Program-made: the position numbers and the translations under genes
Source: an uncultured Candidatus Binatia bacterium
Lineage (GTDB): Bacteria > Desulfobacterota > Binatia > UBA9968 > JAJDTQ01
Length of the DNA stretch: 64,000 nucleotides
Direction: 5' to 3'
NCBI GenBank assembly: GCA_965215605.1
Contig: OZ244070.1
Coordinates: 1,888,001-1,952,000, forward strand
Notes under the pieces: generated by a model
Seen by the model: only the letters and a program-made list of their open reading frames with translations
Database searches by the model: none
Told to the model about the DNA's origin: nothing
Shown: one piece after another, positions 40,662 to 43,357 of the stretch
How positions within the stretch are numbered: the first letter of the stretch is position 1
Layout of the letters: each line of letters starts with the position of its first letter

Positions 40662-41108
40662 TCATCCCCTCCCCGCGCGCGAGTGCGCCGACCAGGGATT
40701 CAATATGGGAACCCCGGTTCCCTGGAAGTCCTTCTCGTTACGGGTACAGAGTGTCAGGGAGTGCACTCGTGCCGTAGCTGCGATGAAAAGGTCCGGCTGG
40801 CCGAAAGTGATGCGCCTGTCTCTGCCCCACGCGACCATACGCCGCCATTCCAGAATCACTTCCTCGTCTACCGGAAGGATGCGCCCCGCGAACCAGGGTC
40901 TCAGCCGCTGGGCGAGCCAAGTTTCGAGCTCCTGATGAGGAATGAGGTCGGTTTGTCGCTCGATTCCGAAACGAATCTCTGCGAGGGTCACGCTGCTCAA
41001 GAAGAAGCCATCCGATGGCTGCGCATCGGACCACGCCTTCACCCGGCCATCGGGTCGGGTCTTGCGCAACTCGGATACGACGTGCGTGTCGAGCAGCCAT
41101 CCGTTCAC
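40662..41108 (-). CDS. vapC: VapC PIN-domain toxin
   Basis: WLLDTHVVSE, LAEIRFG, DLFIAATA, TRNEKDF. Confidence 0.9.
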   Translation of the reverse strand: MNGWLLDTHVVSELRKTRPDGRVKAWSDAQPSDGFFLSSVTLAEIRFGIERQTDLIPHQELETWLAQRLRPWFAGRILPVDEEVILEWRRMVAWGRDRRITFGQPDLFIAATARVHSLTLCTRNEKDFQGTGVPILNPWSAHSRAGRG

Positions 41109-41401
41109 AGATCGACCTCTCGAACGGGGCTCCTTACGCCTTCGTCGCCAAAGTCCAAGCGGTTCAAGGGGGACTTGGACAACAAATCGTGCAGGCTCAC
41201 CGACTCAGCGCGCGCGCAAAGGCGTTCAAACTCGGACGTCGCGACGATGACGACGGTATCCTTGCCGCGTACCGTTACATGCTGCGGTTGACCGGAGGCG
41301 GCGAGGCGGACGACATCGCTGAACCTTGCCTTGGCCTCCCCTAGCTTCCAACCGTGAAGCGCTGTCGGACTGGTCTGCGAACCTTGACGAGACTTACCCA
41401 T
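41105..41401 (-). CDS. Phd/YefM antitoxin
   Basis: WKL.EAKARFS.VV..PQHVTVRG; operator-like tgacc-N5-ggtca upstream (~41419-41433). Confidence 0.85.
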   Translation of the reverse strand: MGKSRQGSQTSPTALHGWKLGEAKARFSDVVRLAASGQPQHVTVRGKDTVVIVATSEFERLCARAESVSLHDLLSKSPLNRLDFGDEGVRSPVREVDL

Positions 41402-41524
41402 GTGGCTCGCTCTTCTTGTGACCGGATTGGTCAAGATTACAGGGGAGGGAAAACCCTTTCAAGGGTCGTCGAAGGAGTAGGTAGGGCCAAGGTCAGCCGG
41501 GACACTGACGACGCGGCGTACCGC

Positions 41525-41560
41525 GCTTCAATGAGGCCGAGGCAATCACGCCTCGGATCC
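41525..41560 (-). CRISPR. Solitary type I-G(I-U)-like CRISPR repeat, copy 1
   Basis: Minus strand GGATCCGAGGCGTGATTGCCTCGGCCTCATTGAAGC: CCGAGGC/GCCTCGG hairpin and ATTGAAGC 3' end. Confidence 0.7.
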
Positions 41561-41909
41561 CCGGTGGCGTTCGATGTAGCGGCGGGTCTCTGGACGGCGT
41601 ACCCATCGGACGAGCAATGTACTGTGGATCGCACGGTTGAGCTTGCCCCAGCATACCTCAGGCAGGTGGTCTCGCCGTGGTCCAAGGAAGCACGGATCAG
41701 GCGCACCGGCCGGGGCATGTAGGAGAAGACCTGATGCTCCCGGAGGCAGTTGGATCGAGCATCTCGTCTTGAGGACGGTGAGGGCCGCTGACGTTGAGTC
41801 AGTAGTGCGCGGCAAGCGATGTACACAATTCCGAACGCCGCTGGCAAAGGAGTCCAGCGGACTAATGACGTCAAACCCGGCGGCGCTGAGTCGGTCCGGT
41901 GGCTGCGGT

Positions 41910-42119
41910 TCACGCACGGTCGAACTCCTGACGCGTGATGCCGAGGTCTCTCAGGATGGCTCTGACGGTTCCCGTTTTCAACTCGTGGCTGCCCCAGTTG
42001 GGGATGGTCGTCCTGCGGCCGTTCGACGATCGAATCCAGACCTCGTGGTCGCCTCGGGCGCGTCGATCCAGGTTGCATCCGAGTCGGCGCAGCTTGCGCG
42101 TGAGTTCGCCGTACCTCAA
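41910..42119 (-). CDS. hicA: HicA toxin
   Basis: LRRLGC..RGDHEVW..TTIP..ELKTGTVRAILRDLG. Confidence 0.88.
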   Translation of the reverse strand: MRYGELTRKLRRLGCNLDRRARGDHEVWIRSSNGRRTTIPNWGSHELKTGTVRAILRDLGITRQEFDRA

Positions 42120-42379
42120 ACTGCAACCATGACCTCACCGAGGCCCTCGTGCTGCAGAGCGTCAACGATGGCTGCTTCAACCTTTTCCGGGAGCGGCTCG
42201 CCACGGTCCCGGTAGGACTCGATGAAAGCCGTGGCAACGCCCTGAAGACTCTCCAGCGCCTGCACACGGGTGTCTCCCCAAGCGCGACAGCCGGGTAAGT
42301 CGGGGATTTCGGCAAGGTACTTGCCTTCGGTTTCCTCCGATGGATCCCGCAGGACGAATCTTAGCCTGTATAGTTCCAT
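42116..42379 (-). CDS. hicB: HicB antitoxin (hicB-hicA order)
   Basis: YLAEIPDLPGCRAWGDT..AL..G.PLP. Confidence 0.88.
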   Translation of the reverse strand: MELYRLRFVLRDPSEETEGKYLAEIPDLPGCRAWGDTRVQALESLQGVATAFIESYRDRGEPLPEKVEAAIVDALQHEGLGEVMVAV

Positions 42380-42631
42380 TTCAGCATCCTCGGCTCAGAC
42401 GCAAAGCGTTCACAGCATCGTTCGTGGTCCCGAAGTTTGCCGGATTTTTCCGGTCGTGGCAAGAAAGGGAGGTGGCCACGGACTGACGGGTGTTCCGGCG
42501 CCGGACCTACATCCGCTGGCTCGAGTCGCGGATCGCCGAGCTCTCGGAGAGAGAGCGCGCGCCCGGGAGCGAGGCTCCCAAGCAGTTGTCTTTATTCCAC
42601 TAAAGGCGAACTGCAAAGTGACGCGCCAAGC

Positions 42632-43039
42632 CTAGGCGTCCCCCCGCACCGTTATCGCCAAAGGATGGTCCAGGAGTTGACGGTCGGCCGTGAGGAGCTT
42701 CAGGTTTTCTTCTTGAGCCTGGACGAGCAGAAGTTCGTCGAACGGGTCTTTGTGGTCCAGCGGTGTTGCAAGCGTGCGTGCGGCGTGCGCGGCGGTCATC
42801 GGCAGAAGCGTCACATCCTGTGCTCTCAAGACGGCGATCGCGTCGTTCGGTTCGAAGGGACTCTTTCGTGTTCCCGACCGGCGGCGAGCGCTGTGCTTGA
42901 GACGCATTTCCCAAATCGACACAGCACTCACGAAGAGCTCCGACCCGTCGCTTTGGAAGAACCTGCGTTCAGCCGCCAGGAGTTTTCCCGGTGCCTCCAT
43001 GAGGTCGTAGAGATAGGAGGTGTCGAGAAGAATACGCAC
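42632..43039 (-). CDS. vapC: VapC PIN-domain toxin without a recognisable adjacent antitoxin
   Basis: ILLDT, VSAVSIWE, HKDPFDELL.QA, LLTAD. Confidence 0.88.
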   Translation of the reverse strand: MRILLDTSYLYDLMEAPGKLLAAERRFFQSDGSELFVSAVSIWEMRLKHSARRRSGTRKSPFEPNDAIAVLRAQDVTLLPMTAAHAARTLATPLDHKDPFDELLLVQAQEENLKLLTADRQLLDHPLAITVRGDA

Positions 43040-43063
43040 GGACCGCGGTTCTATTCTTGCTCG

Positions 43064-43099
43064 TATTCAATGAGGCCGAGGCAATCACGCCTCGGATTC
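43064..43099 (-). CRISPR. Solitary type I-G(I-U)-like CRISPR repeat, copy 2
   Basis: 43066-43097 is identical over 32 bp to 41527-41558. Confidence 0.7.
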
Positions 43100-43138
43100 C
43101 GCCCGAACCTCCTGCTGGATGGCGACCGACGTGTCTGG

Positions 43139-43357
43139 CTACGTGGTTGGCGTCCGGCGTTTCCTTGCAATTACTTCGCCGGCTACTCGGTCCACTTCTA
43201 CTTTACTCTGTCGCAGCAACTCGATCTCATAAGGAGTCAGCATCCGGGGAGCGGGCGATTTGCCAAGCCACCGATTGAGCAGTTCGATGGACGGGGTGGC
43301 CGAGGTGCCTCTCCGTGCATTGCTCAGACTCTGTTTCGTAGCGTTGTCCGACTTCAT
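43139..43357 (-). CDS. Small hypothetical protein
   Basis: 72-aa ORF co-oriented with the TA genes; no family recognised. Confidence 0.4.
   Translation of the reverse strand: MKSDNATKQSLSNARRGTSATPSIELLNRWLGKSPAPRMLTPYEIELLRQSKVEVDRVAGEVIARKRRTPTT

Follow-up and report, generated by a model that had tools for sequence, protein, structure and literature searches.

Two solitary repeats of the kind found in CRISPR arrays stand among toxin-antitoxin (TA) genes of an uncultured Candidatus Binatia bacterium, and we find that they are very probably non-functional relics, carried on an inserted mosaic block and left over from a lost type I-G locus whose TA pairs survive. They belong to a stretch of 64,000 nucleotides (nt), called the window here (contig OZ244070.1, positions 1,888,001 to 1,952,000, assembly GCA_965215605.1), and all window coordinates are counted from its first letter. 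Stray repeats would stand among TA genes at this site because the bacterium lost the type I-G system to which they belonged. Caution is called for, as solitary repeats beside toxin genes resemble CRISPR-regulated TA (CreTA) circuits; the comparison with relatives shows I-G debris.

A first-pass annotation, made from the letters of the window, had reported an identical 32-nt palindromic repeat at 41527 and 43066, about 1.5 kb apart, and this holds exactly. The core occupies 41527-41558 and 43066-43097 (plus-strand coordinates, an offset of 1539 nt), these are its only two copies in the window, and a chance match was seen in 0 of 100 shuffles. The whole genome (G000; 4,057,781 bases in 8 contigs, 97% complete) holds the core at these two places alone with up to 3 mismatches allowed, and neither blastn-short nor the Rfam model CRISPR-DR16 found a further convincing copy in it, the 2 extra model matches scoring 19 bits each. 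With the 36-nt register set by the array repeat of relatives and the minus strand taken as the RNA sense, the two elements are as follows:

41525-41560, minus strand: repeat 1, of type I-G, identical at 34 of 36 positions to the repeat of the closest relative (G022), 3' end ATTGAAGC.
43064-43099, minus strand: repeat 2, of type I-G, identical at 33 of 36 positions to the G022 repeat.

Repeat 1 departs from the G022 repeat by 2 mismatches, both near the 5' end, and repeat 2 by 1 mismatch near the 5' end and by a terminal TA in place of GC. Both form the same hairpin, with an 8-pair stem that includes one G-U pair (-16.7 and -15.7 kcal/mol for repeats 1 and 2, z about -2.7), and they score 34.7 and 29.7 bits, respectively, with CRISPR-DR16, for which the gathering score is 35.

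The type of the repeat follows from its layout and from the arrays of relatives. A passage in PMC9638904 describes the I-G repeat as 36 nt long and cut by Csb2 4 nt 3' of a 7-bp hairpin, which leaves an 8-nt handle. The window repeats have this geometry of hairpin, 4 nt (CCUC) and 8-nt 3' handle, the handle being AUUGAAGC and, in repeat 2, AUUGAAUA. Arrays beside I-G genes were seen in relatives only. We compared 60 related genomes, 27 from the same genus and 33 from other genera of the order, and a pattern search found arrays of this repeat in 6 of the 27 (G003, G012, G021, G022 with two, G024 and G026) and in none of the 33. The arrays hold 19-80 copies with a period of about 73 nt and spacer medians of 36-37.5 nt, and an exact scan for a 30-nt core through one genome for each of 185,579 species found it solely in the six array-bearing genomes. 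The genes next to the arrays in relatives are csb1, csb2, cas3g, cas4g/cas1g and cas2. In G022 they are csb1/cas7g, csb2, cas3g, the gene of the I-G Cas3-extension protein, cas4g/cas1g and cas2, and G021 has csb2, cas3g, cas4g/cas1g and cas2 there, among which stands a type III-B cmr1-6 block. The I-G assignment holds because of the Csb2-cleavage layout together with these congener arrays beside I-G genes. Both stray repeats are thus true type I-G CRISPR repeats and are not part of the resident type I-E system, as the first-pass annotation had recognised. A reading as integron attC site or repetitive extragenic palindromic (REP) element was dropped, since the repeat is the array repeat of congeners; judged by eye, it is 36 nt long (attC, 57-141 nt) and no GTTRRRY core was seen, and no search for intI was made.

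The cognate cas genes are gone from the genome. When nine proteins of the G022 operon were compared with it by tblastn, matches were obtained only for ORF72, a small open reading frame (ORF) described below (97% amino acid [aa] identity), Phd (89%) and VapC (94%), and Csb1, Csb2, Cas3g, Cas3-ext, Cas4g/Cas1g and Cas2 of G022 gave no match in the genome at E <= 1e-3. Twelve I-G and III-B proteins of G021 likewise found no specific match there, the matches being generic helicase ones at the two I-E cas3 genes and one in a wrong frame. A hidden Markov model (HMM) of Csb2 gave 0 matches in all 8 contigs, and the same model, as a positive control, fires in G022 and G020; a general Cas6 HMM also gave 0 matches in all 8 contigs. 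One tblastn match of a G021 'Csb2' ORF, at window 43206-43367, was rejected as a wrong-frame echo of DNA similarity, the conserved frame being that of ORF72. As a functional array the locus fails, with 2 repeats and not at least 3 at regular spacing and with no cognate cas genes in the 8 contigs. The first-pass annotation had counted a lack of cognate cas genes as speaking against its own functional proposals, and this lack is what tblastn and the HMMs found. It had also placed I-E genes near 60285, correctly: the resident type I-E system has cas3 at 60165-62825 and cse1 from 62911.

What was lost can be read from G022, the closest relative at about 93% identity. Three stretches of the window (38000-40636, 40650-41496 and 43141-47000) align to it with 93-94% identity, and the gaps between them are where its cas genes and array lie. 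At the same site and in the same orientation, G022 has the order ORF72-csb1-csb2-cas3g-cas3ext-phd-vapC-cas4g/cas1g-cas2-leader-44 repeats, then 67 nt and the left flank. Only three genes of such a locus survive in the window:

43139-43357, minus strand: ORF72, a small protein of the genus's I-G loci, 97% identical at the aa level to the G022 gene that precedes csb1.
41105-41434, minus strand: phd/yefM-type antitoxin, the partner of vapC (Pfam PhdYeFM, E 9e-9; NCBIfam phd_fam).
40662-41108, minus strand: vapC, a PIN-domain toxin of 148 aa, intact (Pfam PIN, E 3e-11; NCBIfam VapC).

From its place in the G022 locus, where vapC overlaps the start of cas4g/cas1g by 4 nt, phd-vapC is to be seen as cargo within the I-G operon. 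Of the 8 I-G loci examined, 4 have the pair after the Cas3-extension gene and before cas4g/cas1g, those of G022 (L012 15831-16603), G020 (L039 7605-8344), G024 (L016 16744-17465) and G002 (L040 9404-10125), and it is missing from that place in G021, G003, G012 and the second G022 locus. A comparable arrangement appears in the Figure 1 legend of PMC9638904, according to which TA genes lie between the effector and adaptation genes in the I-G locus of Thioalkalivibrio sulfidiphilus. The two have in common that a type II TA pair separates the interference module from the adaptation module; in contrast, around the TA pair of the window the cas genes are gone, and the pair and ORF72 remain. Half of the loci of the genus thus have the pair as part of the I-G operon, and in at least three separate products of decay (the window, G019 and contigs of other populations) it is still present where the cas genes have gone. 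An independent deletion in G019 has placed ORF72 directly before phd and a truncated vapC.

The order of events is indicated by X5/X6, contigs from two public runs of one study that sampled another population and are not mutually independent; these contigs leave parts of the window uncovered, for example 42010-42400. They cover 40106-40726 and 40919-41502, continue with 18 nt and resume with 43141-43361, and the 18 nt joining 41502 to 43141 are identical to the ORF72-downstream sequence of G022, including GAAA. This state has no repeats and no PIN-hicBA genes, and two deletion junctions are common to it and the window, one between vapC and the left flank and one between the ORF72-downstream and phd-upstream sequences. 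The second, at 41496/41497, is the site at which csb1-csb2-cas3g-cas3ext were lost, the G022 homology upstream of phd stopping at 41496, and next to it lies a short piece of the old locus:

41497-41517, minus strand: ORF72-downstream remnant, 21 nt; GCCGCGTCGTCAGT follows the ORF72 stop codon in G022 and in the X5/X6 contigs.

As G022 also carries GAAA-GCCGCG after ORF72, the state without repeats is the ancestral one. Because X5/X6 share the deletions and yet are without the block that carries the repeats, this block of 1621 nt is a later insertion into a cas-less remnant. It entered at the stop codon of ORF72, where homology to G022 stops, and replaced the ancestral 4 nt GAAA. Its G+C content is 56-62%, compared with 66-71% in the flanks.

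The first-pass annotation had taken simple array decay as its null hypothesis. Of this, the notion of relics of a decayed system stands, and decay in place does not, as the repeats came on the approximately 1.62-kb block into a locus already without cas genes. Nor are they a shrunken local array, since the local array lay beyond vapC and was deleted with cas4/cas1 and cas2. Two deletions in the lineage of the window removed the four effector genes and, with the array, the adaptation genes, and ORF72 and phd-vapC were left. In the origin that we propose, the block would be a fragment of another I-G array, already decayed and invaded by TA genes; another strain or a second locus would have supplied it, illegitimate recombination would have joined it in, and homology across iolG (the gene at one border of the site) and ORF72 could have anchored the joining. 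Both phd-vapC and hicBA would persist because TA pairs resist loss, and the repeats would be passengers whose transcripts, without Csb2, should not be processed to CRISPR RNA (crRNA)-like RNAs. Exact junction strings of the block were found in neither of two scans of metagenome_contigs for a donor, in collections that may omit records near the genome of the window.

The content of the block also points to debris. On the minus strand the order is ORF72, 39 nt, repeat 2, 24 nt, PIN, HicB, HicA, about 350 nt, repeat 1, Phd and VapC, so that the order and spacings given by the first-pass annotation agree with the gene calls. The parts are:

41518-43138, minus strand: inserted block, 1621 nt, made up of a 39-nt arm, repeat 2, the mosaic TA region, repeat 1 and a 7-nt arm.
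43100-43138, minus strand: arm before repeat 2, 39 nt, spacer-sized, with about 10 nt weakly like the leader ends of relatives.
43040-43063, minus strand: Phd-type antitoxin stump, 24 nt, the last few codons and the stop codon, fused directly to repeat 2.
42632-43039, minus strand: PIN-domain toxin, 135 aa, full length, without antitoxin (Pfam PIN, E 3e-13).
42508-42603, plus strand: 3' stub of a convergent gene, 31 codons and the stop codon of a 199-aa gene of no recognised family (no Pfam match).
42116-42379, minus strand: hicB antitoxin, 87 aa (Pfam HicB_lk_antitox, E 9e-7), with a 4-nt overlap with hicA.
41910-42119, minus strand: hicA toxin, 69 aa (Pfam HicA_toxin, E 1.7e-15).
41646-41735, plus strand: 3' stub of a multicopy gene, about 28 codons of a 188-aa gene, aligning only to its 3' end.
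41562-41645, no strand assigned: stretch before repeat 1 in the crRNA sense, 84 nt, with no match in the 27 same-genus genomes and no additional repeat-like Rfam match.

The gap between the two 36-nt repeats is 1503 nt and contains 3 intact genes and 2 gene stubs; no tRNA or other known RNA was found in this interval. By their predicted families and adjacency with 4-nt overlaps, Phd with PIN/VapC and HicB with HicA qualify as TA pairs. The 135-aa PIN protein has homologues with 81-83% aa identity in G015, G017 and G001. An 87-aa Phd-type antitoxin precedes the homologue in G015 and G017, and G001 keeps the 3' end of the antitoxin. Because the antitoxin before PIN is complete in G015 and G017, the PIN gene of the window has been severed from its partner, and a close copy of the 87-aa antitoxin is absent from the genome, where the best match reaches 43-49% identity over about 40 aa. 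The stump itself was recognised in a by-eye alignment with G017, G015 and G001, to which blastn homology begins at 43041. Window 42499-42789 is 95% identical to G022 C1:2144731-2145021, another place, which holds the full 199-aa gene, and the hicBA unit at 41859-42500 has separate counterparts, 88-95% identical to it, in G009, G015 and G003, which puts a junction at 42499/42500. The 188-aa gene occurs in many copies per genome of the genus, with about 90% identity over the 3' end, and belongs to no Pfam or NCBIfam family; one copy (L052 1537-2103, in G024) is divergent from a 387-aa ORF. The 39-nt arm before repeat 2 may be a spacer or a remnant of a leader end. As judged from these alignments, three or more unrelated pieces, with truncated genes among them, have been put together between the repeats, and such a patchwork is not one captured segment.

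This bears directly on the proposal that the repeats acted as mobilising sites, a repeat-TA-repeat cassette having moved through a repeat-repeat circle or having been taken up by Cas1-Cas2(-Cas4) as a very long 'spacer'. The block does have co-oriented repeats near both ends and is one insertion relative to the X5/X6 state, parts of bioRxiv 10.1101/2023.03.03.530964 note the recombinogenic nature of repeats, and in G012 a vapC remnant, a helix-turn-helix (HTH) gene and a 98-aa ORF likewise lie between a full and a half repeat. The block does not end at the repeats, however, but runs on for 39 nt beyond repeat 2 and for 7 nt beyond repeat 1; the inner end of repeat 2 is cut short, and what lies inside consists of stubs from at least three loci. 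A truncated repeat 2 together with a patchwork of stubs indicates serial illegitimate joins and not one integrase event. No significant target-site duplication was found (score 11.0 versus a shuffle mean of 11.9), and the similarity of target site and repeat scored 13, which lies within the shuffled scores of the other comparison (mean 11.9) and was not itself shuffled. A second copy of the cassette was not found in the related genomes or among metagenome contigs, and the one clear mobile insertion in the array of a relative is an ordinary insertion sequence (IS) with inverted ends and a 7-nt duplication. The capture of TA genes as giant spacers, which the first-pass annotation had raised, is weakened by the same make-up of the interval, three or more pieces in which genes are truncated, and by the loss of the last 2 nt of repeat 2 at the antitoxin stump. 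We therefore consider mobilisation by the repeats very unlikely, and likewise the narrower version, in which the block moved as a unit with the repeats or the Cas4/Cas1-Cas2 proteins of a donor I-G system as agents. If true, this version would make CRISPR arrays capture-and-transfer platforms for TA cassettes. Junctions between repeat and TA genes, which the first-pass annotation had suggested looking for, were found neither in the other genomes nor in two metagenome scans.

Relatives show what happens to arrays of this repeat, and there the expectation that ordinary arrays would be found randomly disrupted, which the first-pass annotation had set against its own proposals, is borne out by an IS in G012 and an element resembling a miniature inverted-repeat transposable element (MITE) in G003. 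The G012 insertion is an IS1595-type element inside an array repeat, with inverted ends, a duplicated TTGATTG and a cargo of a PIN gene and a 230-aa ORF. The G003 array is interrupted by a repetitive element of 316 nt that has palindromes of the GGGCGGGTTTGAAACCCGCCC type (L025 about 310-690; C1:1013310-1013690), and pieces of this element match dozens of places in the genome of the window. Arrays of the same repeat are thus broken by mobile elements, and in this respect the window is alike; it differs in that its TA genes have no transposase or flanking inverted ends and that the joins look like illegitimate recombination. Elsewhere in G012, where the sequence is syntenic with the G024 array trailer, there is a solitary last repeat, after which come the HTH gene, the 98-aa ORF, a deleted vapC homologous to that of the window and a half repeat. 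The vapC remnant between a full and a half repeat is a second hint of repeat-driven capture.

The IS1595-type element of G012 (L022 about 16990-19290; C1:3271990-3274290) may be a transposon with PIN-based cargo; its PIN protein has 155 aa, and its 230-aa ORF is without a known family.

Debris of a lost system is also favoured over the possibility that the repeats still work, as crRNA-like or processing elements through which an I-G effector or Csb2 supplied in trans ties toxin expression to CRISPR, in the manner of CreTA. The cores are intact, with the I-G hairpin, 4 nt and 8-nt handle, and the repeats are co-oriented with the toxin genes and directly upstream of them, at 24 nt from PIN and 90-123 nt from phd. 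For the latter, the distance from repeat 1 is 90 nt with the TTG start and 123 nt with the ATG at 41401, which is likely the true start of Phd, an equivalent ATG starting the G019 homologue. Moreover, phd-vapC is truly I-G operon cargo in 4 of the 8 loci, and mini-arrays aimed at TA cargo within cas loci are on record in parts of bioRxiv 10.1101/2023.03.03.530964. Against this stand the absence of any I-G, III-B or Cas6 gene from the 8 contigs, the distance of 1503 nt between the repeats, which leaves no psi-spacer, the lack of a partial target for the repeat-adjacent sequences and the loss of the last 2 nt from the handle of repeat 2. Neither upstream of phd nor after ORF72 is there a repeat in the intact loci of G022 and G020, and the arrangement is unique to the genome of the window. 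We give a very low probability to a working role of the repeats, in which an unassembled plasmid or a co-resident or incoming element would be the supplier in trans and the ORF72-repeat-PIN and repeat-phd transcripts would be cut or bound.

The searches for targets gave a consistent result. The 38-40-nt flanks of both repeats had chance-level matches only in the genome (at most 18 nt, E >= 0.08; PAM-aware seed matching, that is, with the protospacer-adjacent motif, was not done), and none of 257 spacers from 8 arrays of relatives matched the flanks. Among the genome-wide spacer matches at E <= 0.01, the only one inside this locus was G003_sp1, which overlaps a repeat fragment. The 30-nt repeat core had 0 matches in viral_contigs. 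In the region, 0 promoter-like sites and 5 terminator-like sites (2.6 expected) were found, the latter number being uninformative. The likeness to CreTA and crRNA-like mini-arrays, as parts of bioRxiv 10.1101/2023.03.03.530964 and PMC10097628 describe them, lies in standalone repeats co-oriented near toxin genes at a former CRISPR-cas locus, but the features that define such elements, a spacer-length psi-spacer, promoter complementarity and a conserved position, were found in neither the interval, the genome nor the related loci, and effector genes are lacking as well. RNA anti-CRISPRs (Racrs), which parts of PMC10651486 present as viral solitary repeats, share with the window the repeat unit outside an array; in contrast, the window repeats are chromosomal, have no phage context and a core absent from viral contigs, and there is no I-G system to inhibit. 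The Cas6-type cleavage sites or mini-guides proposed by the first-pass annotation consequently find no footing, with no I-G effector, Csb2 or Cas6 gene, no interval of spacer length and no targets.

Closer to the relics proposed here are orphan CRISPR remnants, of which the cas-less CRISPR2 locus of Enterococcus faecalis is an example according to passages in PMC4580645 and PMC5491264. In both cases, repeats of a subtype persist without cognate cas genes and relatives keep the system at or near the site. The window differs in having 2 repeats with 1.5 kb of TA genes and stubs between them, which arrived on an inserted block.

The arrangement could also be an artefact of assembly, in which the 1567-nt inter-repeat piece belongs elsewhere, for example in the array of a co-occurring strain, and was threaded through the shared repeat. 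In two source-like runs (X1 and X2) the contigs end inside both repeats (40000-41551, 41529-43095 and 43068-44000) and none bridges them, and these samples also hold repeat-spacer-repeat contigs of other arrays and have far higher depth over the repeat. The depth is alike, however, for the three pieces, at 3.6/5.3/4.0 in X1 and 8.3-9.7/8.9/7.9 in X2, and the window lies in a 3.96-Mb contig, which suggests long reads spanning 1.6 kb. Even without the middle piece the flanks would keep a solitary repeat and the foreign arms of 39 nt and 7 nt that are absent from X5/X6. We regard an artefact as having a very low likelihood.

Several points nevertheless weigh against the interpretation of the repeats as relics on an inserted block. 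Because the source-like contigs break at both repeats, the order of the three pieces is taken from the assembly alone. The block sits at the position of the cas genes and not at that of the array, so that an extra insertion step is needed, and no source was identified for the 39 nt before repeat 2 or for the 84-nt stretch that precedes repeat 1. The 32-nt core has remained identical in the two repeats, and 31 of the 32 positions are as in the repeat of G021, G022 and G026, which means that either the event is recent or the core is held by selection. Both repeats and all five genes of the TA region share one orientation. A PIN gene that is full length yet has no close cognate antitoxin would be unexpected in mere junk, and decay alone does not explain it; as with the preserved cores, the reason may simply be a recent insertion. 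Finally, with a genome that is 97% complete in 8 contigs, I-G genes could lie on an unassembled plasmid.

If the relic interpretation is correct, the case is one of ordinary decay of a defence locus, of a known kind, and the phd-vapC cargo and ORF72 leave the current view of CRISPR and TA biology unchanged. ORF72 is a small conserved companion protein of I-G systems without a known family. Its 8 homologues are 67-72 aa long and 60-97% identical, with 26 invariant columns, and are located at window 43139-43357, L012 8672-8890, L038 8011-8229, L039 15417-15629, L010 3207-3413, L015 13325-13531, L023 7418-7624 and L018 8120-8320. The gene precedes csb1 in locus 1 of G022 and in G020, and in G021, locus 2 of G022, G012 and G003 it separates the Cas5-like half of csb2 from the Cas6-like half. 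In G021 its frame differs from the 816-aa open frame that spans both csb2 halves (833 aa in locus 2 of G022). No family was found for it in NCBIfam or PADLOC, the Pfam match to DNA_meth_N was below threshold (E 0.004), and Atlas scores were at most 0.89; PADLOC run on 8 proteins gave no match.

The site as a whole is a variable island between a WYL-regulator stub and iolG, with flanks of conserved chromosomal genes in 27 of 27 congeners. The borders in the window are:

40474-40641, plus strand: WYL-type regulator stub, the first approximately 56 codons, the left island border.
43390-43449, minus strand: AAA-ATPase/PD-(D/E)XK stub, the first 20 codons, the other island border; intact in G019, G020 and G026.

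The first stub matches the N-terminus of a 327-aa G026 protein with WYL and WCX domains (47% identity over 59 aa, E 1e-12), and the second shares 17 of 20 residues with the start of a 513-aa G019 protein (Pfam AAA-ATPase_like and PDDEXK_9). The left flank lies 146-823 bp from iolG in G019, G025, G027 and G024. At the same site G020 has a complete I-G operon and a small array of a variant repeat, and G014 has unrelated transporter-like ORFs, judged by eye from the translations with no family search. Another X5/X6 contig has a repeat fused directly to vapC at window 40725.

Some further observations were made on the arrays of relatives and on other repeats in the genome. In G021 the locus is composite (L010 1862-18593), with the III-B cmr1-6 block and a TM1812-like gene between csb2 and cas3g and a single array, and the I-G and III-B systems may share crRNAs. 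Adjacent identical spacers occur in the two G022 arrays (G022a sp36/37, G022b sp11/12 and sp23/24) and in G021 (sp27/28), and none of the 257 spacers from the 8 arrays is common to different relatives. A k-mer scan of the genome of the window revealed four arrays of 10-22 copies elsewhere on contig C1, with I-E-looking repeat words and without the I-G repeat, at two places (G000 C1:1956910-1957647, 1959780-1960329, 2316712-2317459 and 2319643-2320926). The cas3 tblastn matches, near C1:1950100 and 2307700, point to two separate I-E loci in this genome. Tandem 99-nt repeats with 87-92% matches are present at window 15761-16179 (4.2 copies) and 20617-21820 (12.4 copies); they could encode 33-residue protein repeats, and the k-mer scan found similar arrays elsewhere in the genome.

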